A stretch of DNA of 64,000 bases from a virus. How positions within the stretch are numbered: the first letter of the stretch is position 1; each line of letters begins with the position of its first letter. The translations under genes were made by a program, and so were the position numbers. This document shows, piece after piece, positions 16,285-64,000 of this stretch. The stretch lies in IMG/VR virus record IMGVR_UViG_3300025195_000023, positions 9,087-73,086 of that record; one strand, written 5' to 3'. The notes beneath the pieces were generated by a model. It was not told the DNA's origin. It searched no databases and saw only the letters and a list, made by a program, of their open reading frames with translations.

Positions 16285-16288
16285 GTGT

Positions 16289-38764: not shown

Positions 38765-39409
38765 TTATACCCACCCGTTACTGTGGAAACGATCCTGATG
38801 GTACCCCTGATCCAGGGGATATCCATCATTCACCAAGCGCTGACAGGCCTGCTCGTACTTGGCCGCGTAGTTGTTGCCATCATGGAAGGCCTCGGTCATC
38901 CCAATCGGGTTCATAACACGGCTGGCCACGAAGTACAGCAGTGGTTCCAGGTACATCGGAGGTAGGTCAATGTCCACCATGTTCGGTGGATAGTACGTCT
39001 CCTCCGTCCCGAAGGGTTTGTGGTCTGCCCGATAGGTCACCAGCAGCATGGTTGCATCCAGACTGGCCGGAACCACCAGGGTCCGGTAGTTCGGGGTATG
39101 TAGTGACTCAGGTTCGTTGAGGATATTGAGTAGGTACTCGTTGTCCTCCGTGTCCTTCACTGACTCAATCCGGAGTAAGTCAGGCAGATCCAGTACATAT
39201 CGAGTCTCTCCCGGCTCCAGAACCAGGGAGTGGACCTGCTCCTTGATGAAGAACCGTGTATGCAGTGCCGTCAGCCCCATACGGACGTGGGTCAACAGCT
39301 GCTTCTTGTTTTCTTCCGTCAGTTCGCCCCGGGACGGATCGGTGAGGAACACATTACGCAGCTCCCCATGGCTCAGGTGATCAAAGATATCTTGCAGTTT
39401 CATAGGCAC
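38765..39409 (-). CDS. Head-tail adaptor/structural protein (N4 gp67-like)
   Basis: LSHGEL, GLTALHTRF, YRADH, LLYFVASR; downstream of terminase. Confidence 0.8.
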   Translation of the reverse strand: MPMKLQDIFDHLSHGELRNVFLTDPSRGELTEENKKQLLTHVRMGLTALHTRFFIKEQVHSLVLEPGETRYVLDLPDLLRIESVKDTEDNEYLLNILNEPESLHTPNYRTLVVPASLDATMLLVTYRADHKPFGTEETYYPPNMVDIDLPPMYLEPLLYFVASRVMNPIGMTEAFHDGNNYAAKYEQACQRLVNDGYPLDQGYHQDRFHSNGWV

Positions 39410-39414
39410 TCCCG

Positions 39415-44216: not shown

Positions 44217-44513
44217 ATGGGATTCCAAACTGCAACTGCAACCAACAACGTTCGTTCCTTCGACCGTCCGGTGAATGCCCAGAATGATCAGTGGAAGTCT
44301 GATGCCTTCATCAACTTGTACGTTCCGACCCGTCAGGGTGGTCGTCGTAAGCTGGGCTCTGTGGGCCTGAAGCTGAGTAAGCCGATGGAAAAGCAGATCC
44401 TCGACTTCTTGGCTGACTCCGGTGAGGAAGGTCTGGCCCAGCTCAAAGAGCGACTGGTGCTGGACTTCCAGCGTGCCGATGGACAGAACGGTGATGAACT
44501 CGACCTCGGTTGA
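44217..44513 (+). CDS. ssDNA-binding RNAP II activator (N4 gp2/Drc-like)
   Basis: WKSDAFINLYVPT..GGRRKLG.VGL pattern; early region before RNAP II. Confidence 0.8.
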   Translation: MGFQTATATNNVRSFDRPVNAQNDQWKSDAFINLYVPTRQGGRRKLGSVGLKLSKPMEKQILDFLADSGEEGLAQLKERLVLDFQRADGQNGDELDLG

Positions 44514-44814: not shown

Positions 44815-45741
44815 ATGACCCAACGAATGCTGCCACGCGATACGCAACTGGCCAATGAGTACACCTTTAGCCGCAAGTTCATTGATGGCTACATATTGAA
44901 GGAGATCGAGTCAAATCCCGACATGATTGCCAAGGTTAACCATGGTGTGCAACTGCTCACAGATTGGTTGGCCAAGGATCATGGGTACGCCAGCAAGAAC
45001 CATCGTCTGGCCCAATTGGCTGACATTGATCTGGAGGAACTGGTCAAGCAACTGTTCGTGGGTGTGGCGTACTGCCAGACACCGGAACTGTTTACCAGTG
45101 TCACAGCGATGCTGGCTGGTCGTGTGAAGTTCGACGACAAGGCTGACAGCATCCTCACAGTGGCTGAGATCATGTCAGTGCTGTGCCTCACGGACGCCTT
45201 CGACATTATCAAAGGCGAGGCCAGTGATTCACTGGTGATCCAGTCGAACATACCTCTGAGTGACCAGCTGCTCCGGTACGTGGTGCAATCCGGTTACCTG
45301 CCACCGATGGTCTGTGAGCCAGAGCACGTAAGCTCCAACTATGACAGCGGGTACCTCACCCACAATGACTGTCTGATCTTGGGCAAGGCCAATGGCCACT
45401 CCGGTGATATCTGTCTGGACGTGATCAACAAGCAGAACAGTGTGGCCCTGAAGCTCGATCTGGACTTCCTCAAGACCGTTGAAGAGGAGCCCGCTCACGA
45501 CTTGGACACGCCTGAAAAAGCCCAGCAATGGGCTGAGTTCAAGCGTCAGTCCTATCAGCGATACCTGCTGATTGCCCAACAGGGAAACCAGTTCTGGTTG
45601 ACAAACAAAGTCGACAAACGTGGTCGCCTGTATTCACAGGGATACCACATCACCACACAGGGCTCTGGCTTCAAAAAGGCGATGATTGAGTTTGCCGAGG
45701 AGGAGATCGTCGAAGGAGTACCGGATGCTTGGACAACATAA
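44815..45741 (+). CDS. RNA polymerase II subunit 1 (N4 gp15-like)
   Basis: LPPMVCEP, DKRGRLYSQGYHIT.QG..FKKA; split T7-type RNAP. Confidence 0.92.
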   Translation: MTQRMLPRDTQLANEYTFSRKFIDGYILKEIESNPDMIAKVNHGVQLLTDWLAKDHGYASKNHRLAQLADIDLEELVKQLFVGVAYCQTPELFTSVTAMLAGRVKFDDKADSILTVAEIMSVLCLTDAFDIIKGEASDSLVIQSNIPLSDQLLRYVVQSGYLPPMVCEPEHVSSNYDSGYLTHNDCLILGKANGHSGDICLDVINKQNSVALKLDLDFLKTVEEEPAHDLDTPEKAQQWAEFKRQSYQRYLLIAQQGNQFWLTNKVDKRGRLYSQGYHITTQGSGFKKAMIEFAEEEIVEGVPDAWTT

Positions 45742-45929
45742 CCAGATCACGTACCTGTACTTCTGCACGTTGGGTGGCTTGTCTCACCCACGTTGCAGGA
45801 AGGCCCACAGACAGAACGGGAACCACACCTACTTCACCTATCACCTGATCACCTGAATAACAGTCCCCACAGCCGGTCTCCGGCCGGTTGGCGGGGCCCA
45901 TAACAGAAGACATTACTGGGAGAACAGAC

Positions 45930-47174
45930 ATGCAGCTATTCACAGGCTGGGATTACCTATTGATTGATGTGGCCAACCAGTTTGGTCACGACAAAGAACT
46001 GTTCGCAGACCGGATCCAGTGGACAACTGAGAATCTGGAACACCTCGAGGAGTTGGCCGATGAGGCTGATGAGAGAGCCCTGTACCTCAAGGGTGTACAG
46101 GCCATCCGTAAGGCTCAACAGGGTGTGCCTACTGGCCACATGATCGGTTTCGACGCGGTATGCAGTGGCATGCAGATTATGTCCACCCTGACCGGTTGTG
46201 AAGCCGGTGCCAATGCCACAGGGCTGGTTGATCCCAACCGTCGTGCAGACGCTTACACCGACTGTACCGGTATCATGCAGCGGTTCATCCCTACCTTACC
46301 GGACAACGAGCGGAAGAAGATCAAGCAGGCGGTAATGACCGTCCTGTACGGATCCAAGCGTGAGCCCAAGAACCTCTTCGGTGAAGGTACCGAGGAACTC
46401 AATGCCTTCTACAAGGCCATGGGTGAACTGGCACCGGGAGCCGTAGAGCTACTGGAAGACCTGCTCAACAGCTGGCAGCCATTCGCACTGAGCCATGAAT
46501 GGGTACTCCCTGACGGTTACGAAGCCAAGGTCAAAGTCATGACCAAGGTTGAGAAGCGACTGGAGGTAGATGAACTGGATCATGCTACGTTCAGCTACGA
46601 GTACTACGTCAACGAAGGACAGGAGAAAGGCCTCAGCAACGTGGCCAACGTCGTGCATAGCATCGACGCCTACGTACTCCGTAGCCTGATCCGCCGCTGC
46701 AACTACGACCATGGTCTCATCCTATGGGCGTCTGAGGTTATCGAAATGGTCTTGCTGGAACGTGCCACAGGTGTAGAACACTCAGTGGATACCTACTGGC
46801 TCGACGACGACTTCAACCACTTACGTGAGCGATACGAAGCCACCCAGATGCCGGATATCCGGATTCTGGACTACTGTGGTGTCCTTGAGATCAAAGCCCT
46901 GTCCAGTGACCACCTGCGGGCACTGGCCAACATCGTGAACAGCATGCTGGAGCATAAGCCCTTCCCTATCGTGTCTGTCCACGATGAGTTCAAGTGCCAT
47001 GCCAACAACATGAACTGGCTGCGTCTGCACTACCGCGATATCTTCGCAGAGATGGCAGATTCCACCATCCTCGATGATGTACTGAGCCAGCTGTACGGTA
47101 CCCAAGGGCACTTCCCCAAGAAGTCTCCGAACCTTGCAGCCAAGATCCGCAACTCCAACTACGCACTGTCCTGA
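45930..47174 (+). CDS. RNA polymerase II subunit 2 (N4 gp16-like)
   Basis: FDAVCSGMQ (A), RKKIKQAVMTVLYG (B), ANVVHSIDA, VHDEF (C), C-terminal YALS. Confidence 0.93.
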   Translation: MQLFTGWDYLLIDVANQFGHDKELFADRIQWTTENLEHLEELADEADERALYLKGVQAIRKAQQGVPTGHMIGFDAVCSGMQIMSTLTGCEAGANATGLVDPNRRADAYTDCTGIMQRFIPTLPDNERKKIKQAVMTVLYGSKREPKNLFGEGTEELNAFYKAMGELAPGAVELLEDLLNSWQPFALSHEWVLPDGYEAKVKVMTKVEKRLEVDELDHATFSYEYYVNEGQEKGLSNVANVVHSIDAYVLRSLIRRCNYDHGLILWASEVIEMVLLERATGVEHSVDTYWLDDDFNHLRERYEATQMPDIRILDYCGVLEIKALSSDHLRALANIVNSMLEHKPFPIVSVHDEFKCHANNMNWLRLHYRDIFAEMADSTILDDVLSQLYGTQGHFPKKSPNLAAKIRNSNYALS

Positions 47175-51195: not shown

Positions 51196-52302
51196 ATGTC
51201 TGCCCACCAGAAGGCACTGGATCGTGCCAAGATCGCACTCATGTCCGACAAAAACTCGGGATTCATCACCACCGTGTGTTTCAACCTGAAGCACATCTGG
51301 GACAACAGTATCTCGACGGCCTGCACCAATGGATTGGTTATCCGGTACAACATTGACTTCTGGAACAGCCTGGACAAGGAGGAGCAGCTGTTCCTCCTGC
51401 TCCACGAAACCTGGCATGTGGCCTTTATGCACATGGCTCGCCTGAAGGAGCGTGATCCCCGCAAATGGAACATTGCCGCGGATTACGTCATCAACTACAT
51501 GCTGGTTTCCCTGGGGTACAAGATGCCCAAGGGAGGCCTGTATGACGCTCAGTACGCGGATATGTCCACGGAGCAGGTATACAACCTACTTCCCGACGAT
51601 CCAAAGGAAGACTTGCCTATGTCTGACCTGGAAGATCCCGGGGATTCCGATGACACCACACCAGAGCAGGCACAGGCCGAGATCGAGGATATCCTGGTCC
51701 GGGCCCACCTACAGTCACAGATGACCAACCGTCCCCCAGGCATGATGCCAGAGGAAATCCAGCTGTACATCAACAGCCTGATGAATCCGCAACTGCCCTG
51801 GAACCGGATCCTGAGCCGGTACGTTGCCCGTTTGAGTAAATCCGATTGGTCCTGGCGACGACCCAACCGCCGGTACTTCCCGGATCATTACCTGCCCTCG
51901 CAGTACAGCGAGACGCTGTGTGATATCGCCATGGCCGGTGACATTTCCGGATCAGTATCTAACGAGACCTTCAAGCAGTACTTGTCGGAGGTCTACGCGG
52001 TGCTGCACAAGGAAAAACCCGAAACCCTTACCTTCATGCAGTTCGACACCACAATCAAACAGGTCGATGTGATCGAGGATCTACAGGACCTGATGAACGT
52101 GAAGCTGCATGGACGTGGTGGTACGGACATTAACCCGGTCATCCAGTGGGTGGCTCAAAACAAACCCAGCCTGATGGTCATCCTGACCGATGGCCACTTC
52201 GACCTGGTCGAACCCAACCCCAAGGTGCCCATTATCTGGGCCATCAGTGACAACCCCAACTTCTCACCACCCTACGGCAAGGTGATTCACCTGCCATCCT
52301 GA
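51196..52302 (+). CDS. Metallopeptidase-like/VWA protein (N4 gp25-like)
   Basis: TACTNG, HETWH, WNIAADYVIN, DISGS MIDAS, GRGGTD, LTDG. Confidence 0.88.
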   Translation: MSAHQKALDRAKIALMSDKNSGFITTVCFNLKHIWDNSISTACTNGLVIRYNIDFWNSLDKEEQLFLLLHETWHVAFMHMARLKERDPRKWNIAADYVINYMLVSLGYKMPKGGLYDAQYADMSTEQVYNLLPDDPKEDLPMSDLEDPGDSDDTTPEQAQAEIEDILVRAHLQSQMTNRPPGMMPEEIQLYINSLMNPQLPWNRILSRYVARLSKSDWSWRRPNRRYFPDHYLPSQYSETLCDIAMAGDISGSVSNETFKQYLSEVYAVLHKEKPETLTFMQFDTTIKQVDVIEDLQDLMNVKLHGRGGTDINPVIQWVAQNKPSLMVILTDGHFDLVEPNPKVPIIWAISDNPNFSPPYGKVIHLPS

Positions 52303-52313
52303 AGGAGCGCCTC

Positions 52314-53564
52314 ATGAGCGATTCGATTACCCTGACCGAAGGCCAGCAGAACGCTTTTGAGGCCTTTAAGAAATTCATCCTGAGTCCCAAGGACAATGTC
52401 TTTGTTCTTGAGGGCTACTCAGGCACCGGTAAAACCACCCTGGTTCGTCGCATCCTGGAGTTCATCCCCAAGCTCCAGAAGATGTACCGCACCGTGGCAC
52501 CCCATGCCAAAAACGACCTGAACATTGTTTTGACGGCCACCACCAACAAAGCCGCTGAAGCACTCTCCCAGATTGTCGGTGAGCCTGTCAGAACCATTCA
52601 CGGGGCCATTGGCTTGCGTGTACACAAGGACTACAAAACCGGACAGACCCGGTTGGTTCCCCGACAGGGTGCTGATCCTGTGAGTGATTCCATCGTCTTT
52701 GTTGACGAAGCCAGCTATATCGACGAATCACTGCTCAAGTACATACTGGCTCGGTGCCAGAACTGCAAGATCGTGTTCATTGGCGATCCAGCTCAGTTGC
52801 TGAACGTTGGCTGCCAGAAGTCCCCGGTGTTCAACGACCGGTTCCCGACTGCCAAGCTGACTGAAGTGGTACGCCAGGCTGAGGGCAACCCCATCATTGC
52901 CATGGCCACCAGCTTCCGTAACACGGTCAACACCGGGAACTGGGAATCCTTGACGGTGGACGGGGTACACATCAAACACCTGCCCCGGGACGAGTTTGAG
53001 GATGCCATTATCCAAGAGTTCAACGACCCAACCTGGACACACAACCGATCCAAGGTACTGGCCTGGACCAACCGGTGCGTCATCAACTTCAACCACGCTA
53101 TCCGCAAGTGTGTCCAAGGCACACCACAGATTCACGTAGGCGACTACGTAATCTGTAACCGCTTCATCTCAATCAAAAAATGCACCTTGAAGACCGATCA
53201 GCTATGCCGGGTAACCGGTATGGGACCCCTGGAAACCCGACAAGATGTAGAGGGGCACAAAGTGCAATTGGACAACCGACACGTTGCATTCCTACCCAAT
53301 GACCCCGACCAGAAAGAGCAAGCCATCAATAAGGCCCAGGCGGAAGATAACATCGCTGCCCTTCGCACGATGGATGAGTGGGTGGATTTACGGGCAGCGT
53401 ATGCCTGCACCATCAACAAGTCTCAAGGCTCTACCTATGACAAGGTTTTCATTGACCTTGACGACGTCGCTCGATGCCGTGATGGGAACCAGATCGCACG
53501 GATGCTCTACGTAGCCGTGAGCCGAGCCAGAGAGACTGTGTACCTCACAGGAGACCTGGTATGA
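52314..53564 (+). CDS. SF1 (Dda/RecD-like) DNA helicase
   Basis: GYSGTGKT, ATTNKAA, VDEAS, GDPAQL, VVRQ, TINKSQGSTY, YVAVSRA. Confidence 0.92.
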   Translation: MSDSITLTEGQQNAFEAFKKFILSPKDNVFVLEGYSGTGKTTLVRRILEFIPKLQKMYRTVAPHAKNDLNIVLTATTNKAAEALSQIVGEPVRTIHGAIGLRVHKDYKTGQTRLVPRQGADPVSDSIVFVDEASYIDESLLKYILARCQNCKIVFIGDPAQLLNVGCQKSPVFNDRFPTAKLTEVVRQAEGNPIIAMATSFRNTVNTGNWESLTVDGVHIKHLPRDEFEDAIIQEFNDPTWTHNRSKVLAWTNRCVINFNHAIRKCVQGTPQIHVGDYVICNRFISIKKCTLKTDQLCRVTGMGPLETRQDVEGHKVQLDNRHVAFLPNDPDQKEQAINKAQAEDNIAALRTMDEWVDLRAAYACTINKSQGSTYDKVFIDLDDVARCRDGNQIARMLYVAVSRARETVYLTGDLV

Positions 53565-54082
53565 CCACGGATATCACCTACGACCCAAAGACCAAGGCGC
53601 TCATCAAGGATCGGCTTTATGAGCACTTGTACGCCCCGGTCAAGGAGAGCTTCAACCAGCGACTGAAGACCATCATTGTCAAGAACTCCGTGCTTCACGG
53701 TAACGACCAACAGTGGTTGTCCTACAAGGGCGAGTACTACGCCATCGACCAGACACAACCCAGGCCACGGCCAATGAACCGGCTACATAAAGAGTTGACC
53801 AGTGTCATGAACGAGTATGTCAATGACCTGGAATACCTGAACCAGCAGGAATTGCCGTATGTCCTGGGCTTCATCAATAACGTTCTGAACTCCTCAAACA
53901 GCCTGCAGGACTATTTCCGGATCTTCCCGGAATCCATTCATGGGCCCCTGAAGGATGTCGCAGACCGGTGTGCCTGTAAGGAAAACCGGCTGGCACCTGA
54001 GACTGTCAAGGAGATCCAGCAAAAGAACCAGATCCCGATAGAATTGATGAAAAAACGTATGGTCCTGAACCTTCTAATTTAA
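53561..54082 (+). CDS. Hypothetical protein (N4 gp38 position)
   Basis: Coupled between helicase and polymerase. Confidence 0.7.
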   Translation: MTTDITYDPKTKALIKDRLYEHLYAPVKESFNQRLKTIIVKNSVLHGNDQQWLSYKGEYYAIDQTQPRPRPMNRLHKELTSVMNEYVNDLEYLNQQELPYVLGFINNVLNSSNSLQDYFRIFPESIHGPLKDVADRCACKENRLAPETVKEIQQKNQIPIELMKKRMVLNLLI

Positions 54083-54092
54083 GGAAACTATT

Positions 54093-56756
54093 GTGCGTCA
54101 CATCATCTTTGAGGAGTCTGACTCCCATCCTATCGCCCTTCTGATCAAAAACACGGCCTTTAACCGTAACGAGATCGTGGCCAACTATGTGTCACCACTG
54201 GCACAGGCCGGGATCCCGTCACGGGACGTCATTGCCTTGGACCTGGCTTACAACCAGGCAGGCAAGGCGCCGGTCAGTTTGATTAAGGAGTACCTGGCCG
54301 ATCTGCTGCCTGCACTGAGTAGTGTGGGTACCAAGATCATCTACTGTGCAGATGCCGCGTATTTCAAGCAGCTTACCGGCCTATCCAAGGCAGAGCCCCA
54401 CCTGGGTTACGTCAAGGACTGCAAGTTAAAAGGCTACGAGGACATGCAAGTGATTCTCGGTGTGAACCACAAATCCCTGCTATACAACCCGGCCAATGAG
54501 CCCAAGCTGCTCATGTCGGTCAACACGTTGATTGACACCATGGGTGGCCAGCACGAACCTCCCGGGAAGGACATCATCAAGCATGCTGTGTATGTGGACC
54601 ATACCGATCTGAACGCCGTCGAGAAAGTCCTGGAAGCCATCCAGGTCCATGACGAACTGACGGTAGATATCGAAACCTTCAGTTTGCGATTCAACGAGGC
54701 CGGTATTGCTACCATCACGTTCTGTTGGGACGAACACTCTGGTGTGGCCTTTGCCGTGGATTATGAGCCATTGCCGGAGAAGAACGAGCACGGTGAGTAC
54801 GGTCGTCAGATCGACAACCAGCCGATCAAGGCCCTCCTGCGTCAGTTCTTTGAGTCCTACCGCGGCACCATGACCTGGCACAACAGTCCTTTCGATACCA
54901 AGGTGTTGATCTTTGAGTTGTGGATGAAGAACGCACTGGATCTGCCAGGACTGCTCACTGGCCTGCACACCCTGCACCAGCGTCTGCATGACACCAAGAT
55001 CATTGCCTACCTGGCCACCAACAGCTGTGCCGGTAACCGTCTGGGCCTGAAAGAACTGGCCCATGAGTTTGCCGGGAACTACGCACAGGAGGAGATCAAG
55101 GACGTCCGCCGTATTCCGCTGCCCCAGCTGCTGGAATACAACCTGGTAGACGGGCTGTGTACCTGGTACGTCAAGAAAAAGTACTACCCGATCATGGTGG
55201 CCGACGATCAGGAAGCCATCTATTACGACCTGATGTTACCGAGCCAGAAGGTCATCACTCAGGTAGAGTTGTCCGGTATGCCCCTGGATATGGACAAGGT
55301 GGCCTATGCCCGCAAGGAGCTTGAGCGGATCAAGGCAGAACACGAACAGGTGTTTGTTAACCACTCGGTTATTCACCGTCTGGAAGACCGCCTGACGTAC
55401 CTGGCCTGGGAAAAGGACTACGCCGACCGCAAGGCCAAAGCCAAGAACCCAGACAAGATCCTGCCCAAGGACCGCAATGCGTTCCCGCGGACAGTGTTCA
55501 ACCCCAACTCCAACCCTCAGATGCAGAAGCTCCTCTATGAGGAAATGGGGCTGCCGGTCATTGACCTGACCAAGAACAAGGCCCCAGCAACCGGGGGAGA
55601 CACCATTGAGAAGCTGATCAACCACACCACGAGCCAGGACTTCATTGAGATCCTGGAAGCCCTCATGGCGTGGTCAGAAGCTGAGAAGATCCTGTCCACC
55701 TTCATCCCGGCCTTCGAGAGGGCCATCCTTAAAGGCGACGGTGTCTACTACCTCCATGGCTCCTTCAATCTGGGAGGTACCAAGTCCGGCCGGTTGTCCA
55801 GCTCCGATCCGAACATGCAGAACCTACCTTCTGGTTCCACGTATGGAAAGCTGATCAAGGACTGCTTCCGGGCACCACCTGGGCACCTGTTCACGGGTGC
55901 AGACTTCAACTCACTGGAGGACTACATCTCTGCCTTAACCACCCGAGACCCGAACAAGTTGAAGGTCTACGAGGAAGGTTACGATGGGCACTCACTGCGG
56001 GCATTCAGCTACTGGCCAGAGAAGTTCCCTTGGGACGAATTGACGCCGGAACTGAGCCATGCTGTCAAGAAGGATCCTCTGCTGGACGCCATTCGGGGCA
56101 AATCCAAGGGACCTACCTTTGCCCTGACGTACCAAGGCACCTGGCACACCCTGGTCAATAGCCTGGGCTTCCCCAAGGAAGACGCCCTGCGTATCGAGGC
56201 GAACTACCACGAACTGTACAAGGTCAGTGACCAGTGGGTTCAGGCCAAACTGGATCAAGCCAGTCAGGACGGGTACGTAACGGTTGCCTTCGGCTTACGC
56301 CTACGGACACCGTTACTGGGCCAAGTTTTGCGAGGCCGAGCCAAGGTACCGTATGAGGCTGAAGCGGAAGGACGTACCGCCGGTAACGCCCTGGGCCAGT
56401 CCTATGGGCTACTGAACAACCGTGCCTGTAACGAGTTCATGCAGAAGGTCTGGCAGAGCCGGTTCAAGTACGACATTCGGCCGGTAGCCATGATCCACGA
56501 TGCCATTTACCTCGTCATTCGTGACGACATTGAAGTGGTGGAGTGGGTGAACCGGGAACTGATCAAATCCATGGAATGGCAGGAACTGCCCGAACTGGTA
56601 CACCCAACCGTCAAGATCGGTGCAGCACTGGATATCTTCTATCCAAGCTGGGCCTACGCCTGCACCCTACCCAACTACGCCGACCAGAGGGAGATTCGCG
56701 CTACGTGCGACACATTTCTCGCTGACCTGGCCGAAAAACAGAAGGAAGCCGCATGA
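54093..56756 (+). CDS. Family A DNA polymerase with 3'-5' exonuclease (N4 gp39-like)
   Basis: VDIET, HNSPFD, YNLVD exo motifs; SGRLSSSDPNMQNLP, ADFNSLE, KGPTFALTYQG, IHDA. Confidence 0.95.
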   Translation: MRHIIFEESDSHPIALLIKNTAFNRNEIVANYVSPLAQAGIPSRDVIALDLAYNQAGKAPVSLIKEYLADLLPALSSVGTKIIYCADAAYFKQLTGLSKAEPHLGYVKDCKLKGYEDMQVILGVNHKSLLYNPANEPKLLMSVNTLIDTMGGQHEPPGKDIIKHAVYVDHTDLNAVEKVLEAIQVHDELTVDIETFSLRFNEAGIATITFCWDEHSGVAFAVDYEPLPEKNEHGEYGRQIDNQPIKALLRQFFESYRGTMTWHNSPFDTKVLIFELWMKNALDLPGLLTGLHTLHQRLHDTKIIAYLATNSCAGNRLGLKELAHEFAGNYAQEEIKDVRRIPLPQLLEYNLVDGLCTWYVKKKYYPIMVADDQEAIYYDLMLPSQKVITQVELSGMPLDMDKVAYARKELERIKAEHEQVFVNHSVIHRLEDRLTYLAWEKDYADRKAKAKNPDKILPKDRNAFPRTVFNPNSNPQMQKLLYEEMGLPVIDLTKNKAPATGGDTIEKLINHTTSQDFIEILEALMAWSEAEKILSTFIPAFERAILKGDGVYYLHGSFNLGGTKSGRLSSSDPNMQNLPSGSTYGKLIKDCFRAPPGHLFTGADFNSLEDYISALTTRDPNKLKVYEEGYDGHSLRAFSYWPEKFPWDELTPELSHAVKKDPLLDAIRGKSKGPTFALTYQGTWHTLVNSLGFPKEDALRIEANYHELYKVSDQWVQAKLDQASQDGYVTVAFGLRLRTPLLGQVLRGRAKVPYEAEAEGRTAGNALGQSYGLLNNRACNEFMQKVWQSRFKYDIRPVAMIHDAIYLVIRDDIEVVEWVNRELIKSMEWQELPELVHPTVKIGAALDIFYPSWAYACTLPNYADQREIRATCDTFLADLAEKQKEAA

Positions 56757-56917
56757 CAGCTGAAGAATTTGACAACCATCACCAGCACGACCTTGGTGAC
56801 GATTTCTGGGGAAGCCATGAGCTGTACCCTGTCGAAGACTGGCAATACGAGGTCTCCAATGATGAAACCCGCCTGGGTTACTGGGACTGGGTTCTGATAA
56901 AAATCGAGACCACCTAA
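56753..56917 (+). CDS. 54-aa acidic hypothetical protein
   Basis: ATGA-coupled to the polymerase; DWQYEVSNDETRLGYWDWV. Confidence 0.6.
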   Translation: MTAEEFDNHHQHDLGDDFWGSHELYPVEDWQYEVSNDETRLGYWDWVLIKIETT

Positions 56918-57318
56918 TGATCTATCCCGACGGTCACCGCCGCTATCGCGTGGTGGATGACTCCGACAACAAAGAGGAGGTGCTGGATTCGTTCAGCATC
57001 CTCCTGCAAGCCGAAATCGCCCTGACCCGGGCACTCAACAATAACGTGGATGCGTACCTGATGGACGCCAAGGAGATGAATTTGGACAGCTTTACCGTCT
57101 ACACCCAACCCGGATGCTTCTTCTGCACCAAAGCCATTGAGCTGCTCAAAAACCACGATCAGGCTGTGAATGTTATCGACATTAACACCGATCCAGAAGC
57201 ACGAAAGCTGATGGTAAAAAATGATTTCAAAACCGTGCCACAGGTCTACCACAACGGTAATCACGTTGGTGGCTATGAAGCCCTGGTTCAGTACATGGAG
57301 ACGGCCAACGCCCAATGA
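56917..57318 (+). CDS. Glutaredoxin/NrdH-like redoxin with N-terminal extension
   Basis: VYTQPGCFFC...TVPQV...HVGGY in the C-terminal ~80 aa. Confidence 0.8.
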   Translation: MIYPDGHRRYRVVDDSDNKEEVLDSFSILLQAEIALTRALNNNVDAYLMDAKEMNLDSFTVYTQPGCFFCTKAIELLKNHDQAVNVIDINTDPEARKLMVKNDFKTVPQVYHNGNHVGGYEALVQYMETANAQ

Positions 57319-57596
57319 TTGAGCAAATCGCTATTGCCGTCTTCGGTCTGACTGCCATCTGGCTGTCTCAGGCGCCCTCTGAAGCCCATCGCAAGTGGGC
57401 ACCAGTCCTTGGCCTGATGAGTCAGCCATTCTGGTTCTACGCCACTCTGGCAGCCGAGCAGTATGGCATCTTCGTACTGACCCTGTTCTACACCCTGGCC
57501 TGGTGCCGCGGTATCAAGAATCACTGGTTCCCGAAACGTGGTGTCCATGCCATGTGGGAGCATCTGAAGAAGGAGTTTACCAGTGAGACCCAGTGA
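57315..57596 (+). CDS. Small three-TM membrane protein (PnuC-like fragment)
   Basis: GLTAIWL...WAPVLGLMSQPFWFY...YGIFVL. Confidence 0.6.
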   Translation: MIEQIAIAVFGLTAIWLSQAPSEAHRKWAPVLGLMSQPFWFYATLAAEQYGIFVLTLFYTLAWCRGIKNHWFPKRGVHAMWEHLKKEFTSETQ

Positions 57597-57789
57597 CTTT
57601 ATCTGCCTTCCACCAGATTCGTTCGACCGTCCCCTGTGCAAGCACAAGGAAACCGGCCTGTATTATTGCGTTCTGGAAGAAGGTATCACCTTCGACGATA
57701 TCCTAGCCGGTAAAGCGGAGCTGTATTACAAGGGCTCCCGAGAAGGTGAACCAGAATACCCAGTCACACTGGAGCCAGACGATGATTGA
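57583..57789 (+). CDS. Hypothetical protein
   Basis: AAGGAG RBS, GTG start, overlapping neighbours. Confidence 0.55.
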   Translation: MRPSDFICLPPDSFDRPLCKHKETGLYYCVLEEGITFDDILAGKAELYYKGSREGEPEYPVTLEPDDD

Positions 57790-58276
57790 TCCACACAAAA
57801 CCAAGTACCACCCGCTGTACTGGTCCATGGTTGAGGCTGCTGCTGACCAGACTGTGGCAACCCGTCACCAAGTAGGGGCCATTGTGGTCACCCCCACTGG
57901 GATGATTAGTGTGGGCTGGAACGGTATGCCCAGCGGTATGGACAACTGTTGTGAGTCCACCATGGTCACTTCTTTGTATAGCGGCGAAAGTCGGCCCAAA
58001 ACCAATCCCGAAGTGATCCACGCAGAACGTAATGCCATCGACAAGATGACTCGTCAAGGAGTACCCACACAAGGCTCCATCCTGTTCGTCTCCCGGGCAC
58101 CCTGCTTTGAATGTGCCAAGGCCATTCATGGCTTGGGGCTGGCTGGAATCTTCTACCAGGAAGATCACGACGACATGCGAGGTGTTGAACTGCTGAAAAA
58201 GACAGGCAATTTCGTCTGCCGTCGAGACAAGATCATCTCATTACAGGAGGCCTCCGGCCTCTCCGCGCTTTCGTAA
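57782..58276 (+). CDS. dCMP deaminase
   Basis: QVGAIVV, GWNG, HAERNAI, PCFECAK. Confidence 0.9.
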   Translation: MIDPHKTKYHPLYWSMVEAAADQTVATRHQVGAIVVTPTGMISVGWNGMPSGMDNCCESTMVTSLYSGESRPKTNPEVIHAERNAIDKMTRQGVPTQGSILFVSRAPCFECAKAIHGLGLAGIFYQEDHDDMRGVELLKKTGNFVCRRDKIISLQEASGLSALS

Positions 58277-58297
58277 ACCAAACCAAGAAGGTCACCC

Positions 58298-58531
58298 ATG
58301 GATACGTTTGAATCCCGGGTGGCCGGTATCCCCTGCCAGATCGAGGTCACCTACTACTCCGAGGATCGTCCTATGCGGGTCACTGGCTCTGGTTTTGGGG
58401 ATGCTGACCCACCCGAACCTGAAGAGTTTGAATTCACTGTACTGGATCGTAAAGGGTATCCAGCCCCTTGGCTGGAAAGGAAGTTAACCAGGGATGATTA
58501 CCAACGCATTAAACAGGAGTACTTACAGTAA
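58298..58531 (+). CDS. Conserved hypothetical phage protein
   Basis: VAGIPCQIEV...VLDRKGYPAPWLERKLT. Confidence 0.7.
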   Translation: MDTFESRVAGIPCQIEVTYYSEDRPMRVTGSGFGDADPPEPEEFEFTVLDRKGYPAPWLERKLTRDDYQRIKQEYLQ

Positions 58532-58740
58532 TGTCCCTGAGGGAAATGATTCTGTCTATTCAAAAACTACTGCATTGTGAATGTCTCAGCGATGTAGTTG
58601 AACGTACTGGTGTATCGTCAGGCACAATTATCCGATGGAAAGAGGAACCACCCGAGCGCCCGTCGTTATTTGTCTTCTATAAGTTGGCCCGATACTTTGG
58701 ATTCCGGCCATCTGTCTCCTTGATGGACAACCTGATTTAA
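58531..58740 (+). CDS. Small XRE/Cro-like HTH protein
   Basis: LSDVVERTGVSSGTIIRWK...PSL....KLARYFG. Confidence 0.7.
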   Translation: MSLREMILSIQKLLHCECLSDVVERTGVSSGTIIRWKEEPPERPSLFVFYKLARYFGFRPSVSLMDNLI

Positions 58741-58818
58741 GGTTAATCCAGTAAGGGGATATATATAGGGACAATATATCAACAACCCTTCTGTGATAAT
58801 GATCAGCTATTAAGTAAC

Positions 58819-59073
58819 ATGGCTGCCATTACTACTTACAAGGGTTATCACATGGCCGTCTCTATTCCTTCCAAAGAAGAAATCCATTCCGACAACATTC
58901 GTATTGGTTTTGCTGAGCTTATTGCTGTGCATCACCGTGGTAAATTGCATTGGGCAATTCCGGGTGGTGGTTATATCCGATCCAAGGTACATGCCACCGA
59001 TTATGCACGAAGACTTAATACGCTCATCACCGTCAATATGAAACGGTTTAACCGAGACTTGCTCTGGTCATAA
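58819..59073 (+). CDS. DUF1317-like phage protein
   Basis: WAIPGG...A..YARRLN; follows an AT-rich promoter-like gap. Confidence 0.5.
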   Translation: MAAITTYKGYHMAVSIPSKEEIHSDNIRIGFAELIAVHHRGKLHWAIPGGGYIRSKVHATDYARRLNTLITVNMKRFNRDLLWS

Positions 59074-59141
59074 TGTTCAACAGGGCCTATATGCTTTCCG
59101 TAAAATGACTCTCCAGTTATTACACGGTAAAGGACGCATAT

Positions 59142-59465
59142 ATGCCCTGGAAAACTGGCCCTGAAATCTGGGATATTGTTGGCGCCCTTATAGTCAGCAT
59201 CGTCTCCGCAGCAGTCTCAATCACCCGACGTATTGTGAACGGATATCCCGCTTCAATGCTTTGGGTGGTGTCGGAGTTTCTCGCGGCCATTCTGGCTGGG
59301 TACCTCATGTATTCCGTCTACCCACACATCGTGGATGACATCCCCAAGTGGTTCACCTTACCTGTGGCTGTTGCCTTTTCTGCTCATGTAGGTGGGCGAC
59401 TCTTTCAGGAGATGGAGAATGAACTCGTTAACCGCTACACCAACCTGTTCGACCGGAGACGCTGA
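59142..59465 (+). CDS. Putative holin
   Basis: 107 aa, three predicted TM segments, charged C-terminus (DRRR), AAGGA RBS. Confidence 0.6.
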   Translation: MPWKTGPEIWDIVGALIVSIVSAAVSITRRIVNGYPASMLWVVSEFLAAILAGYLMYSVYPHIVDDIPKWFTLPVAVAFSAHVGGRLFQEMENELVNRYTNLFDRRR

Positions 59466-59466
59466 T

Positions 59467-59637
59467 ATGACGTCTTCAGAACTCATGGCCGTTGCCCGGG
59501 CAGAACAGGATTGGCGTGACGGATTATCAGCAGATGAAAACCCCTTCCCGGTTGGCTCTGCTGAATACCGTCACTACCAGGATCACTTCGACCGCCTCAT
59601 GGTGGAAGAAGCGATACGCGACCAGTCCGCCGCGTAA
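59467..59637 (+). CDS. Small hypothetical protein (RMF/CrpP-like NPF motif)
   Basis: GGAG RBS; G.S..ENPFPVGS.EY..Y. Confidence 0.5.
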   Translation: MTSSELMAVARAEQDWRDGLSADENPFPVGSAEYRHYQDHFDRLMVEEAIRDQSAA

Positions 59638-59647
59638 AGCGGACATT

Positions 59648-59969
59648 CAATTAACCCTTCTGTGAAGGGAAGGGTTGATTGTTCCTCAAGATTGACCGGT
59701 GTTGGGTTCAAAGTCAGGACAAGCCCCTGGCCACCGGTCACCTATACAATCCATCGATGAAGGCACTGGATTGGGTCTTGCTTTGTATGCCCAAAGAGTG
59801 AAACGGATTATCACTTTTAGGATCCGCAAGATACCTAACTGGTCTGATCAACCGGGTAATGGTAACCAGGGTTAGTAGCCTGCAGTGTCTTCTTTGATGG
59901 GTTGTGCCCTCTCCTCCTCTCCCAAGGGGTTCCCCATAACCCCGACTCCACTGCCCACGGGGAGGGCAC
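59648..59969 (+). ncRNA. Candidate structured non-coding RNA(s)
   Basis: Four closely spaced folded domains, including a 156-nt multibranch structure; G-U pairs favour the + strand. Confidence 0.55.
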
Positions 59970-59999
59970 TCCCTCCTAGTCTGAACCAAGGAAAAACCA

Positions 60000-60179
60000 A
60001 TGAAAGATCCCGTCATTACTGTGGCCCTGAGCCGCAGTCAGATCATTGAGCTATTGGCCAACAGCAACATGGGCCCACACAGTACCAACACCTTGTTTGA
60101 AGCCCGGAAGATCCTGCGACGAGTGATCCGGGAATCGCTGGCCAGCAATGAAGTGCCAACCACAAAACGGAGGGCCTGA
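60000..60179 (+). CDS. 59-aa hypothetical protein
   Basis: AAGGA RBS; MKDPVITVALSRSQ...; below the track cutoff. Confidence 0.5.
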   Translation: MKDPVITVALSRSQIIELLANSNMGPHSTNTLFEARKILRRVIRESLASNEVPTTKRRA

Positions 60180-60315
60180 TGCCATACACCATGCAAATCC
60201 ATACCTGTGCCGCTGCCCAGTCCCTCCACCAACTCCAAACAGCCATCAAACGGCCCAATCAAAGGAAACACTCTATGAACCTGAATAATGCTGCCCTGCT
60301 GGAAACCAAGGAGTA

Positions 60316-60714
60316 ATGACCATGTCCAAGACGACAACACGGGATCGCCTCTACACTGCCGCCCTGTATTTACGGGCACATTGTGTCCAGCCACAAAAGG
60401 TGTCCATCAACGAGTTCACCAGGCAGTTCACGGTGTCCTCCAATACGGTAGCTGAGTTTATTGATGCCGGTCTGATCACGCGAGTAGGTAGGGCCCTCTA
60501 TGTACGGACAGATAAGCCAGTCACTCTGGCGGTGATTGACGAGATCCTGGCCAAGCGTCAGAACGGCTATATACCAAAGGTTCCAGAACTGTACGGTAAA
60601 CAGGCTTCGGCCAATGATTCCGCAACAGGCACCGTTACCTTGGCTCAGTACCAGGAACTGGAAAAACGGGTATCGGCCCTTGAACAACTTCTGATCCGGA
60701 AGGGTGCCGCATGA
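60316..60714 (+). CDS. Putative winged-helix DNA-binding protein
   Basis: AAGGAG RBS; SINEF...VSSNTV..F.DAGLI.RVGR..Y; coiled-coil tail. Confidence 0.55.
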   Translation: MTMSKTTTRDRLYTAALYLRAHCVQPQKVSINEFTRQFTVSSNTVAEFIDAGLITRVGRALYVRTDKPVTLAVIDEILAKRQNGYIPKVPELYGKQASANDSATGTVTLAQYQELEKRVSALEQLLIRKGAA

Positions 60715-61211
60715 CACGACGACTTTCCGCTGACACGATCCGCCACCGCTTGGTGCAGATCAACCCAGAGGAACTGGACGGCCGGTGTGACCAACGCTTC
60801 AAGCAGGTCTACCAACAGATCCAGGTGTCATGGAAGGACATTGTGAGTTACTACGCCGAGAACGGGTACACCTGGGAAGACGCCGCAAACCAGTTTGGGC
60901 TGAAGACCTTCACGCTCAAAGCCTACTGTAAGCGAGCAAACCTGTCCTTTCCCTGGCAAGGTCCCCGAGGCTGGAAGGCACGGAAACGCCAAAGCGAAAC
61001 CAAGAAAGGTATCCGACCTTCCGGAGGGATCATCCCCAAGGAATTCACCGTCTTCGGACGGACGGCACCCTTGAAAACCTTGATCGCGGAGTTCTCCCCA
61101 CCAGGGTTGACCTACGCATGTGTGTACCAACGTCTATCACGGAACTGGTCATTGGATAAGGCACTGACCTACCCCAAAGGCTGTCCACTGATCCTGACCC
61201 AGGCGGCATGA
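60711..61211 (+). CDS. Putative DNA-binding protein (HTH plus HNH-associated-like C-terminus)
   Basis: GYTWEDAANQFGLK..TL; LTYACVYQRLSRNWSLDKALT. Confidence 0.55.
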   Translation: MTRRLSADTIRHRLVQINPEELDGRCDQRFKQVYQQIQVSWKDIVSYYAENGYTWEDAANQFGLKTFTLKAYCKRANLSFPWQGPRGWKARKRQSETKKGIRPSGGIIPKEFTVFGRTAPLKTLIAEFSPPGLTYACVYQRLSRNWSLDKALTYPKGCPLILTQAA

Positions 61212-61405
61212 GCGGTTATCACTGCCGGACACAGTCCGGCTTTATCCCTTTGCTCATTGCTGCCTGTATTCTCGGTTCATTAATAAAGATCAACGTGCGG
61301 CACCCTCCCTCATGCGTGACAGTGACTGGAATCAAAGCCGCTCAGATGCTGCCCAGCGGCCGGCAGAACTTTACCTACTATGAGAAGGAGGTGTGTGATG
61401 AGTGA
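61208..61405 (+). CDS. Small membrane/secreted peptide
   Basis: QSGFIPLLIAACILG hydrophobic segment; ATGA-coupled. Confidence 0.5.
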   Translation: MSGYHCRTQSGFIPLLIAACILGSLIKINVRHPPSCVTVTGIKAAQMLPSGRQNFTYYEKEVCDE

Positions 61406-62057
61406 TAGAGAAGAGTTTGAAGAGCGCAATCCTGTGCCAGATAGCGCCACATGGAACGAGAAGAAGCAAGGCTATTACTGGAGCAACTACCCGGCCGTAG
61501 CGCACCTGTTCAATGATAAATGGGAAGTGTGGCACGAGGCTGTTGAATATGTCCGCGCCCAAAGTGGGCAAGGTGCGGAGCCGGTTGCGAAGATAGTCTC
61601 GGGTTATTCAGGTGACCCCGACACTTGGAACGACTTGGAAATCAAACCACTCGATCTTTCAGGTTGCAAAGTAAACGACTTGCTTTACACCCAACCCCAT
61701 CCTGCCCAGCAAGGGAGTGTGCCGGATGTAGGTGCGATGGCTGCCGCTAAAGGCGCTGTCGAATTTGCAGAGGATGAGCAGATGGTGCGCGACTGTCCGG
61801 GTGTGGCAGCAGAGACAATAAAGGAGCTGGCGAATCTCATTTTATCTACCACGCCCCAGCCAGAGGCTGATGGGTGGGTTAAGTGCAGCGAGAGGTTGCC
61901 GACCGAGGCGGATGGCGACTGGGACGGGCAAGTTATTGTTTTAGACGATCATGGTGAAATGGCTTGCACAAACTGGAGCGTAGCAACTCGCAAGATCATT
62001 ACCCACTGGAAACCAACCGGACTCAAGCGGCCACAACCGCCGAAGGAGAGTGCGTGA
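61398..62057 (+). CDS. Mosaic DUF551-domain protein (Ea-region type of temperate phages)
   Basis: EPVA...LLYTQP and WVKCSERLP...ITHWKP modules. Confidence 0.7.
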   Translation: MSDREEFEERNPVPDSATWNEKKQGYYWSNYPAVAHLFNDKWEVWHEAVEYVRAQSGQGAEPVAKIVSGYSGDPDTWNDLEIKPLDLSGCKVNDLLYTQPHPAQQGSVPDVGAMAAAKGAVEFAEDEQMVRDCPGVAAETIKELANLILSTTPQPEADGWVKCSERLPTEADGDWDGQVIVLDDHGEMACTNWSVATRKIITHWKPTGLKRPQPPKESA

Positions 62058-62383
62058 TGGCTGTAGATAGCGAAACTTATATGGCGGTTTGTGGTGAGGT
62101 TCAGGATTTGCGACGGCAGCTTGCCAAGAGTGAGGCACGAGTGGCGGAGCTTGAGGCTGACAACGAACATCAGCGAGAGCGCCGGAACGCGGCTCGGGAG
62201 TGCATTAAGAAAATGGGTGATGGCAGCCCTTGGCTCCTCCGCAAGCAGGCCGAGGCGGTAGAAAAATCAGCCCTCTTATTTCCGGGGCGTGAGCTAACCG
62301 ACATTCGGTGCTCGTTACACACAGAAGCCCAACGCCTGAGACAACAAGCCGAGCGCCCACAACCACCACAGGAGGGCGAGTAA
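62057..62383 (+). CDS. Ead/Ea22-like coiled-coil protein
   Basis: AKSEARVAELEA; KQAEAVE...EAQRLRQQA. Confidence 0.55.
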   Translation: MAVDSETYMAVCGEVQDLRRQLAKSEARVAELEADNEHQRERRNAARECIKKMGDGSPWLLRKQAEAVEKSALLFPGRELTDIRCSLHTEAQRLRQQAERPQPPQEGE

Positions 62384-62385
62384 CC

Positions 62386-62766
62386 ATGTACTGGTTCCTG
62401 ACCCTGGCTTTGCTCCTTCTGGTGGACACCTACCTGTTCACCAAGGGGTACGACACGTTTTTCTTTTCCCACAAGACCCAAGCTGAAAAGCAGATTCAAC
62501 AGAGGATAATCATGAGCAAGCAACTCAACCCTGAATTGATCAACCCCCGCTACGTTCAGATCAAGCGTAAACAAGCTGCTGAGATCCTGGGCGTATCCCC
62601 GGCAACCTTTGACCGTATGCGGAAGGACGATCCAGACTGCCCCAAGGGCTTTACCCGGAATGACTCCAAGATCGCTCAGGTGTATTTCCGCCTGTCCGAT
62701 ATCTATACCTACAGCGAACAGCTCATGAATCGCTCTCAGCCCGCCTCAGAGGCCACGAACGGTTAA
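62386..62766 (+). CDS. AlpA/excisionase-like HTH protein (internal start 62512; in-frame upstream TM peptide from 62386)
   Basis: IKRKQAAEILGVSPATFDRMRKDDPDCPKG...VYFRLSDI; convergent with the integrase. Confidence 0.75.
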   Translation: MYWFLTLALLLLVDTYLFTKGYDTFFFSHKTQAEKQIQQRIIMSKQLNPELINPRYVQIKRKQAAEILGVSPATFDRMRKDDPDCPKGFTRNDSKIAQVYFRLSDIYTYSEQLMNRSQPASEATNG

Positions 62767-62767
62767 C

Positions 62768-64000
62768 CTACCCATTGCCCTGGACTAATCCGATTACAGG
62801 GTCCTCCGGCTTGCTGGTGCCCTTCTCCAGCGCTTCCAGGTAATCCGCATACCACTGCATCATGGCTCGCCTTTGTTCCAGATACTGGGCCTTGTTGTAT
62901 ACCCCCGCCATACCGTCCTCGACGTGAGCCAACTGGGCTTCTACCCAGTCCTTGGGCCAACCATGCTCCCGTAGCAGGGTACTGGCCGTATGACGGAAAC
63001 CGTGGCCCACAATCCTACCCTCGTAGCCAACCTGTACGATCACCTTCTTGATCGCATTCTCGCTCAGGGTAGGATTCTTTGAGCCATAGCCCGGGAAGAC
63101 ATATCGACCTGCCCCGGTGTACGGTTGCAGGGCTTTCAGCTCCTGTACCGTTTGGGATGCCAGGGGAACCGTGTGTTCCCTTCGCATCTTCATCTTCTCT
63201 GCACGGATGACCCAGAGACCTTTATCCAGATCCAGTTCTGTCCATTCCGCAAATCGGGCCATGCCCGGGCGACTGGCAGTACGCAGAGCCAACCAAACCA
63301 TGGTTTCGGTGACCTGCCGTACCTTCGCTTCTCGAATAGCTTTCAGGAATCCCGGAAGGTCAGGCTCCAACAGATGTGGATAGTGGTTTCGTGTAAAACG
63401 ATCCACCGCAACATGCTTCAGCTCACTGGCTGGATTGTGTTCGGTCTTACCCTCGGCAATGGCCAGGGAGAATATCTGGTTGATCCAGCCCCGGAGCTTA
63501 CCTGCCATTACATGGGCACCTCGATCCTCCATAGATTGCTGGATCGTCGTACAATCCAAGCGTGTGACTTCTTCCAGTGTCTTGTTACCCAGCCGGGGCA
63601 ACACTTCTTTGTCCAGGTACATTCTCATCTGACGTGTTGTGCCAGGGGCCCGACCGGATTTCAGTTTTCGCTGATACCAGTGTTCCGCTGCATCCATGAA
63701 CAGGATCTTGGGAACCTCCGGAGCGGTATTGAGTTCCTCCCCATCGGAGACTTTCTTCAACAGTTCCCGGGCTTTTTCCCGTGCCGCTTTACCGGACACT
63801 GCCGGATAGCCACCGATCCCTTTCCAGGCCCACTTACCGTTGGGCCGTTTGTAACGCACCACCCAGGATTTACTGCCACCGGCCTTGACCCGAAAATACA
63901 ATCCAGGACTGTCATTCTCCTGATAGTCCCGTTCCTCGGGTTCCAGCTTCTCCAACACACTGTCCGCCATCGGACGGCGCTTAATCTGTGAGCGTTTCAT
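62768..64000 (-). CDS. int: Tyrosine integrase, P4 family with N-terminal arm-binding domain
   Basis: GLYFRV...GSKSW..RY arm domain; catalytic R (TASRPG), K (KMKMRREH.VPL), HGFR, LAH, VYNKAQY all present. Confidence 0.95.
   Translation of the reverse strand: MKRSQIKRRPMADSVLEKLEPEERDYQENDSPGLYFRVKAGGSKSWVVRYKRPNGKWAWKGIGGYPAVSGKAAREKARELLKKVSDGEELNTAPEVPKILFMDAAEHWYQRKLKSGRAPGTTRQMRMYLDKEVLPRLGNKTLEEVTRLDCTTIQQSMEDRGAHVMAGKLRGWINQIFSLAIAEGKTEHNPASELKHVAVDRFTRNHYPHLLEPDLPGFLKAIREAKVRQVTETMVWLALRTASRPGMARFAEWTELDLDKGLWVIRAEKMKMRREHTVPLASQTVQELKALQPYTGAGRYVFPGYGSKNPTLSENAIKKVIVQVGYEGRIVGHGFRHTASTLLREHGWPKDWVEAQLAHVEDGMAGVYNKAQYLEQRRAMMQWYADYLEALEKGTSKPEDPVIGLVQGNG

Follow-up and report, generated by a model that had tools for sequence, protein, structure and literature searches.

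An N4-like phage carrying an integrase module and mapped as a probable prophage of a marine gammaproteobacterium

We analyzed a 64,000-nt stretch of DNA (hereafter the window; positions refer to it unless the record is named) that forms the final 64 kb, positions 9087 to 73086, of the 73,086-bp IMG/VR virus record IMGVR_UViG_3300025195_000023 (G000). At a probability of roughly 75%, we consider that the window represents most of an intact-looking temperate phage of the Schitoviridae (N4-like) type, and that a marine gammaproteobacterium carries it in its chromosome as a prophage. The integrase gene of this phage, int, lies at the very end of the record and converges with a small gene, xis, which we read as coding for a predicted recombination directionality factor. 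Integrated N4-like phages bearing integrases are already known; what is new here is a well-mapped example together with the details of its integration module.

Evidence for integration of the phage

IMG/VR assigns the record to the class 'provirus', and CheckV estimates its completeness at 99%. The record is trimmed at gene boundaries: its bases 1-3 are the stop codon of a minus-strand gene coding for a 122-aa protein (phrog_9646, unknown function), and the final base of both window and record is the A of the int ATG. These opposite ends are neighbors in a relative, G008 (73,935 bp, 127-bp end overlap, class 'direct terminal repeats'), which is collinear with the record throughout and circularly permuted. 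In a tblastx comparison, positions 634-53120 of G008 match record 25369-73086, ending at the int ATG; positions 53622-53873 match record 118-369, the 122-aa end gene; and positions 58207-73627 match record 6574-24523. In a second relative, L084, the homologue of the 122-aa gene stops 365 nt before int. This arrangement supports the view that the record is a phage genome whose circle was opened in the gap ahead of int, the outcome expected of integration at a phage attachment site (attP) in that gap. The earlier note, made from the sequence alone, had proposed a prophage opened at an attachment site just beyond the int start; integration and an opening in the attP gap were upheld by G008, L084 and the 405,366-bp contig described below, and the attachment repeat itself was not visible.

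Searches with the exact sequences of Int, the 126-aa form of Xis, the 122-aa end protein and the capsid protein retrieved 10-18 contigs for each protein, from sources that include NCBI, and the longest contig measured 405,366 bp every time. A contig of this size is 5.5 times as long as the phage.

Continuity across 61-64 kb, on which the earlier proposal depended, was found in independent assemblies. The comparison rests on Logan contigs of runs X1-X4, runs X8-X15 (small word shares) being left out. One contig of run X1, which may be the source sample, joins the N4 genes to int: it starts at about 43.5 kb, includes the DNA polymerase gene and extends 231 nt beyond the int start codon, where its end would fall inside the expected tRNA gene. 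The xis-int junction is also spanned, with 0 differing letters, by contigs of X2 and X4, two runs of other studies, and no loose ends or joints were found in the run contigs across int. Over positions 52001-64000, contigs from four studies (2016, 2016, 2023 and 2025) differ by 0, 0, 2 and 0 letters in 12 kb. Such uniformity is unusual for a phage population; transmission along with a single host lineage accounts for it more readily.

The module occupies the same place, in the same order, with N4 genes on both sides, in five relatives (G008, L083, L084, L091 and L112). In the relatives assembled across the junction, the int-xis slot lies between the replication-gene block and the tail-fibre/lysis block. 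These observations support int and xis as parts of the N4-like genome; the possibility, raised earlier, that int belongs to an adjacent element with its own pair of attachment sites was not borne out. A satellite inside the prophage was also ruled out, since the module sits at the same place in the relatives.

The integrase

The product of int contains three Pfam domains, all above cut-off: Arm-DNA-bind_3 (PF13356, 1.4e-15), Phage_int_M (PF22022, 5e-19) and Phage_integrase (PF00589, 5.4e-21). Since all 13 aligned homologues begin with MKR at one common column, the gene is whole. In the same 13-sequence alignment, residues R244, H333, R336, H359 and Y368 are invariant and K271 is at least 90% conserved; we take these to be the R-K-H-R-H-Y catalytic set of tyrosine recombinases. 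A complete P4-family integrase with its catalytic residues, as first described from the sequence, was thus recovered. The protein aligned with NCBIfam PRK09692 over residues 7-395 of 410 and scored 211.9 bits, below the cut-off of 434. A PDB sequence search revealed resemblance to the solved N-terminal and central domains of CP4-like and CPS-53 integrases, the N-terminal domain matching that of the CP4-like integrase 3jtz with an E-value of 8.3e-10. An Xer-like role in dimer resolution was ruled out by the arm-binding domain and by the tRNA-like core found in relatives (see below).

No copy of Int above 92% identity was found in genome, viral or metagenome collections, from which the window's own genome is possibly excluded. 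Of 11 scanned genome loci with bacterial homologues (39-66% identity), 9 have a complete tRNA gene approximately 165 nt upstream of the homologue, and in 6 of these 9 it is tRNA-Leu.

The attachment site seen in relatives

The layout of attP was derived from the 450 nt upstream of int in 12 loci in which phage genes flank int on either side. A pair of direct TGTAYAC sites, spaced 12 nt apart, is found approximately 246 and 234 nt before the int ATG. Next comes a core that resembles the T-arm, acceptor strand and CCA of a tRNA and ends approximately 160-165 nt before the ATG. Two direct and one inverted TGTAYAC sites follow at approximately -46, -34 and -17, the last just ahead of the int ribosome-binding site. 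TGTAYAC occurs 2-7 times per 450 nt at conserved offsets, compared to 0.40-0.53 times in shuffled sequences. ARAGORN found no complete tRNA in the 11 metagenome and viral loci of this kind that it was run on; a further locus in the same scan, L176, has four tRNA genes upstream of int.

The cores vary among relatives (L083, L084, L086, L091, L112 and L163-L173). One group ends in ...GCCCGCCGCTACCA, an ending that would imply a tRNA starting with A or having a G-U first pair, and others have tRNA-Leu-like ends. The core of L112 is the exact last 23 nt of tRNA-Leu(tag) in a Halomonadaceae genome. In the nearest relative, L163, a fragment of a related N4-like phage whose Int is 92% identical, the core resembles the 3' end of tRNA-Leu. 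The same integrase family seems to have switched targets several times, and differing cores are as expected if the module stays working while changing targets. In the window itself, a repeat search over 57.5-64 kb returned only short, chance-like pairs.

Together, the circular permutation, the 405,366-bp contig and the attP of relatives are three independent lines that support integration of the phage.

The small gene convergent with int

The xis open reading frame (ORF) ends at 62766, 1 nt from the int stop codon (62768-62770). It is the last gene on the plus strand, closing the block that contains the DNA polymerase gene; the earlier note placed it last in a middle-region operon, a reading to which the scans for promoter- and terminator-like sites (see below) lend no support. 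The form on record in the protein collection is 126 aa long and starts at 62386; the portion common to 12 homologues consists of 84 aa from 62512, with a mean column identity of 58% in the 12-sequence alignment. The 42 codons ahead of this core have a homologue fused to the core in L170 (78% identity over 23 aa, tblastn) and one in L164 that is a separate, overlapping 61-aa ORF, and 5 of the 120 homologues listed measure 122-126 aa. The extension may be a small membrane peptide fused to the core or, alternatively, the genuine N-terminus of the 126-aa form; the extension and core could constitute a membrane-anchored Xis or two genes read as one.

In Pfam, xis matched Xre-like-HTH (19.4 bits) and HTH_17 (18.4 bits, cut-off 27), both below cut-off, and in PHROG it matched phrog_66, 'excisionase and transcriptional regulator' (E = 2.5e-4). 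The AlpA family (PF05930) is absent from the Pfam families listed at E ≤ 0.05. The label AlpA/Xis-like given to this convergent gene therefore survives in part: convergence was confirmed, likeness to Xis found weak support, and the AlpA assignment was dropped. A profile built from the 12 homologues retrieved 151 proteins at E ≤ 1e-5, and none of the 120 homologues listed has a precomputed Pfam domain. A few are named, as 'hypothetical protein', 'DNA-binding protein' or 'helix-turn-helix transcriptional regulator', and come from Marinobacter, Halovibrio, Marinobacterium, Modicisalibacter and Chromohalobacter. On sequence grounds, xis would belong to an unannotated family and not to AlpA.

An AlphaFold2 model built from the alignment reached a pLDDT of 84.7. 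Its best Foldseek match is the RdfS excisionase 8dgl (E = 0.021, probability 1.00, TM 0.48/0.58, 19% identity), followed by MerR-type winged helices, the phage P2 DNA-binding protein 4lhf and the putative excisionase 2kvv; there was no match at E ≤ 0.001. A search of PDB sequences with the xis profile gave no significant match to solved excisionases and returned only the designed repeat protein 8vd6, no stretch of which is significant alone, and uL29 (E = 0.38).

Among 20 loci inspected, a xis homologue converges on int in 15, namely 11 of the 13 phage or metagenome loci (including one frame without ATG and two called only as C-terminal pieces) and 4 of the 7 bacterial loci; L084, L163 (piece only), L005, L006 and L008 have no homologue or a fragment only. 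The convergent gene is thus known from phage relatives as well as from bacterial tRNA-Leu islands. We read it as the probable recombination directionality factor of this integrase family; an excisionase-like fold is predicted, and the position of the gene is the stronger argument.

A model for integration and excision

We propose that, after injection and circularization of the phage DNA, Int would bind the TGTAYAC motifs as arm-type sites; in relatives, two such sites precede the core, and three more (two direct, one inverted) stand between core and int. Recombination by Int would then take place at the core, approximately 20-25 nt long, whose sequence matches the end of a tRNA gene on its 3' side, probably that of tRNA-Leu. 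Integration would rebuild the tRNA gene approximately 165 nt upstream of int and leave a partial copy beyond the 122-aa gene at the far end. Int probably limits its own synthesis, as the P' sites overlap the int ribosome-binding region. Excision would need both Int and the Xis-like protein. Because xis closes the plus-strand block, its expression would be tied to transcription of that block, and the protein would be made only once the block is transcribed.

Weighing the alternatives

A number of observations count against a functional prophage or weaken the case for it. Neither an attachment site, a tRNA nor a host gene is visible in the trimmed record. The window and record 1-9500 yielded no tRNA gene, repeats shared by the two record ends reached no E-value better than 1.7, and the sole match to a tRNA-3'-end-like pattern in the record end search sits inside the terminase gene. 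The L163 core had 0 exact matches in 342 Halomonadaceae genomes and one match with a single mismatch (1/342), Marinobacter-type families not being part of this search, a result that supports no assignment of a host family or exact target. None of the five genomes with the closest bacterial int homologues (0/5) carries an N4 capsid gene. That the four proteins share one 405,366-bp contig is inferred from their identical maxima, and the Xis assignment draws on gene position and a weak fold match. Scans of the window proteins with Pfam, PHROG and NCBIfam revealed no lambda-type repressor, and promoter-like sites are not in excess (4, compared to a shuffle mean of 4.4). Finally, a recently immobilized prophage would look identical.

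This last point is the substance of one alternative, namely that the phage is integrated and no longer inducible, a copy recently immobilized or domesticated that is inherited vertically and may lack a route to start its transcription cascade. We consider it unlikely. The near-identity of the contigs from four studies does fit vertical inheritance in one lineage, and neither a repressor nor a route from a host promoter was identified; however, the 3701-aa virion RNA polymerase gene and the other hallmark genes are free of frameshifts, completeness is 99%, and full-length relatives that are not integrated possess this module together with a conserved attP, some of them with end overlaps. Since such relatives exist, the lineage as a whole moves between the two states. 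Far less probable is a phage that is not integrated, the record being a free or replicating genome mislabelled as a provirus whose ends fall at int by chance or through a boundary rule of the caller. Provirus callers are known to snap boundaries to integrases, and host DNA is absent from the record. Yet a free genome would keep the attP gap of approximately 365-500 nt seen in L084 and G008, whereas here the 122-aa gene and int stand at opposite ends; the exact end genes and the capsid gene are found on a 405,366-bp contig, and the X1 contig stops only 231 nt past int. It is hardly credible that int and xis form a separate integrative element, such as a tRNA-Leu island or satellite, beside an N4-like genome, or that they were joined to it by misassembly. 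The pair does occur in bacterial tRNA-Leu islands devoid of N4 genes, but against this stand the N4 genes that flank it in the same place and order in the five relatives named above and the integrase present in 10 of 12 near-complete relatives; misassembly is countered by the independent X1 contig, which joins the DNA polymerase gene to int, and by the other runs that bridge xis and int. A resident, intact-looking prophage remains the interpretation that we favor.

The N4-type gene set

The record carries a complete N4-type genome, with genes for the virion RNA polymerase (vRNAP), RNA polymerase (RNAP) II, the single-stranded DNA-binding protein (SSB), capsid, portal and terminase (Table 1). 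The vRNAP, of N4 gp50 type, matched phrog_2206 over residues 159-3695 (E = 0, 1720 bits). An SSB of N4 type (phrog_743, E = 6.7e-74) and a helicase gene were also detected; we presume that the two RNAP II subunits and the SSB are the counterparts of N4 gp15, gp16 and gp45. Primase and exonuclease genes (PHROG matches; primase E ≤ 3.7e-98) are present besides the DNA polymerase gene. No frameshift was seen in the 3701-aa vRNAP gene or in other hallmark genes. The claim that the integrase and xis are contiguous with a full N4-type gene set free of obvious frameshifts was hence substantiated by the PHROG hallmarks, the completeness estimate and the collinearity with G008.

DNA similarity searches gave no match in E. 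coli genomes, and in cultured phages a match confined to 184 nt of int. The capsid protein matched 481 records of cultured phages with a maximum identity of 66.6%. The best listed are N4-like phages, the nearest capsids being those of Acinetobacter phage vB_IME_Ab2712 and of the Pseudomonas phage LUZ7 group.

Several further genes were observed. A ribonucleotide reductase gene lies at 5310-7550 (phrog_367, 6e-94), and a dCMP deaminase gene at 57746-58276 (PF00383, 4.3e-16), in the region best kept at the DNA level with L163 (86%). Directly before the RNAP II genes, positions 44217-44513 code for a 98-aa early-region protein that matched phrog_6271, 'toxin' (moron/host takeover; E = 1.1e-13).

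Table 1. Coordinates of the features in the 64,000-nt window
Feature	Position	Strand	Basis
Virion RNA polymerase (N4 gp50 type), 3701 aa, one open frame	16289-27394	-	phrog_2206 'virion RNA polymerase'
Structural/packaging block	32994-41025	-	PHROG matches to capsid, portal, terminase
Major capsid	32994-34163	-	phrog_1357, E 9.7e-140
Portal	35792-37975	-	phrog_1216, E 2.9e-254
Large terminase	39415-41025	-	phrog_38, E 3.7e-98
RNAP II subunit genes (two)	44815-45741, 45888-47174	+	phrog_2166 'N4-like RNA polymerase', E 2.7e-102; phrog_2051 RNA polymerase, E 7.4e-151
DNA polymerase, in the block that xis closes	54093-56756	+	phrog_17, E 4.3e-150
Cro/C1-type helix-turn-helix protein, 69 aa, candidate lysogeny regulator	58531-58740	+	HTH_26
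Variable accessory region, between the 107-aa holin-family gene and xis	59466-62383	+	ORF list
Hydrophobic in-frame extension ahead of the xis core, 42 codons	62386-62511	+	Fused in L170
Xis-like recombination directionality factor candidate, 84-aa conserved core	62512-62766	+	Homologues, fold model, position
Tyrosine integrase int, 410 aa, arm-type DNA-binding N-terminal domain (P4/CP4-57-like architecture)	62768-64000	-	Pfam

Control of lysogeny and the variable region

In N4, transcription of early genes depends on the injected vRNAP and that of middle genes on RNAP II, and late transcription requires the host RNAP as well as the SSB of the phage. Since a prophage lacks an injected enzyme, its induction must start from the host RNA polymerase. 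The main question raised by an integrated N4-like phage is thus how a lysogen silences the cascade from vRNAP through RNAP II to host RNAP and restarts it.

A gene coding for a 69-aa Cro/C1-type helix-turn-helix (HTH) protein matched Pfam HTH_26 with 22.7 bits, against a cut-off of 22 (E = 1.2e-4). tblastn revealed homologues in four distinct int-bearing relatives (L163, L091, L083 and G008) and no match in the two ParA-type contigs described below. On these small numbers, the protein is the best candidate for a regulator of lysogeny. NCBIfam returned nothing for xis, for the 69-aa, 132-aa and 160-aa HTH proteins or for the 122-aa end gene. Three terminator-like sites were found on the plus strand, none of them intergenic.

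The variable region ahead of xis contains ORFs of 59, 132, 166, 65, 225 and 139 aa, all on the plus strand, and none has a named PHROG or Pfam function. Sharing of this region, as seen by tblastn, is patchy and restricted to int-bearing relatives, and G008 gave no tblastx match across record 68545-71597. Just after the 107-aa holin-family gene (phrog_6854, E = 1.6e-34), positions 59466-60000 form a gap of approximately 530 nt devoid of any credible ORF.

Relatives and the shared slot

Related integrases, 58-64% identical, are found on IMG/VR contigs of 66-74 kb; five of these contigs were tested, and each (5/5) has a capsid gene of N4 type that is 73-84% identical. The 80 best capsid relatives from IMG/VR include 12 contigs of at least 60 kb, and PF00589 scored above cut-off in 10 of these 12. 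The ten include another 'provirus' record, in which int forms the extreme end; the two near-complete relatives devoid of integrase have no ParA or Rep_3 match either.

An N4 capsid gene at 73% identity was also found in 2 of the 342 Halomonadaceae genomes, in both cases on a stand-alone contig of phage size: G173:C6 (74,886 bp, 123-bp end overlap; loci L251-L259) and G342:C16 (75,948 bp). Neither contains int or xis. The int-xis slot of G173:C6 (L251:12520-18114) holds a Rep_3 initiator (PF01051, 9.8e-38) and a ParA-type ATPase (PF01656, 1.8e-15), and that of G342:C16 holds a ParA homologue at 47% identity (L250:6338-6958). By gene content, both contigs are candidate N4-like phage-plasmids.

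These cases permit a tentative generalization, which we regard as possible and rather doubtful: the marine N4-like clade might have one slot for interchangeable persistence cassettes, either Int-Xis-attP, directed at 3' ends of tRNA-Leu type and present here and in most near-complete relatives, or ParA/Rep_3, such that persistence would be the rule, a Cro/C1-type protein restricted to the integrase-bearing members would hold off the vRNAP cascade, and induction would come from the host RNAP. If true, the logic of lysogeny would differ from that of lambda, induction arising necessarily from the host RNA polymerase.

Significance and comparison with known systems

Infection by N4-like phages starts with a polymerase brought in by the virion, and it is not obvious how a prophage of this type could launch lytic growth. 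The phage of the window, a complete integrated example with proteins deposited in NCBI, makes silencing and restart of the cascade amenable to study: its integration module is defined, its attP can be predicted, and unintegrated relatives are available for comparison. The finding is also relevant to therapy and biocontrol, since applications of N4-like phages presuppose a strictly lytic life cycle. Its value lies in the detail rather than in discovery, the existence of such phages being in print.

A 2023 survey in mSystems described 40 integrated N4-like proviral regions and 54 genomes with lysogeny hallmark genes; these integrase-encoding genomes came from IMG/VR and bacterial contigs, with marine samples as the largest source, and the survey, which describes cultured N4-like phages as lytic, concluded that some N4-like phages are lysogenic (PMC10654107). 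The novelty implied by the earlier note hence did not hold, and the phage of the window resembles those proviruses in being an integrated, integrase-bearing N4-type genome (PMC10654107). The terms attP, 'attachment site', excisionase, repressor, Halomonas and Marinobacter are absent from the main text of that survey, and, relative to that text, our description goes further in covering how attP is laid out, a core of tRNA-Leu type, the Xis-like family and the constant position of the insertion slot (PMC10654107). Among the publications returned by our literature searches on temperate, lysogenic or prophage N4-like phages, as far as their accessible text extends, no experimental study of lysogeny was found, nor any lysogeny mechanism or attachment site of an N4-like phage.

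The phage shares with Escherichia phage N4 and the cultured Schitoviridae the giant vRNAP, the two-subunit RNAP II, the SSB, capsid, portal and terminase, and the strand layout. The 30 best integrase matches among cultured phages all lie in records shorter than 70 kb, the longest being 64,021 bp. With integrases of the P4, CP4-57 and HK620 type, Int shares the three-domain architecture, the arm-binding DUF4102 domain and homologues that adjoin tRNA genes; HK620 Int is 34.9% identical and has an annotated attP beside it. The predicted Xis resembles RdfS and other MerR-like winged-helix excisionases (8dgl, 4lhf and 2kvv) in its small size, its best fold match, its place next to an integrase and its predicted strand-helix-helix-strand-helix succession; it differs from RdfS in that their identity is 19% and the Foldseek E-value just 0.021.

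Identity to Int ranges from 33.7% to 53.4% in the best 30 cultured-phage integrases listed, the nearest being those of Pseudomonas podoviruses of approximately 41-44 kb, vB_PaeP_FBPa19/FBPa42 (53.4%) and UFJF_PfDIW6 (48.8%), which we take to be LUZ100-like. These podoviruses differ from the phage of the window in family and genome size, and they have no virion-packaged polymerase. LUZ100 itself, described as a temperate T7-like phage, provides a parallel, in that a group regarded as lytic and endowed with its own RNA polymerase has gained a lysogeny module (PMC10134795).

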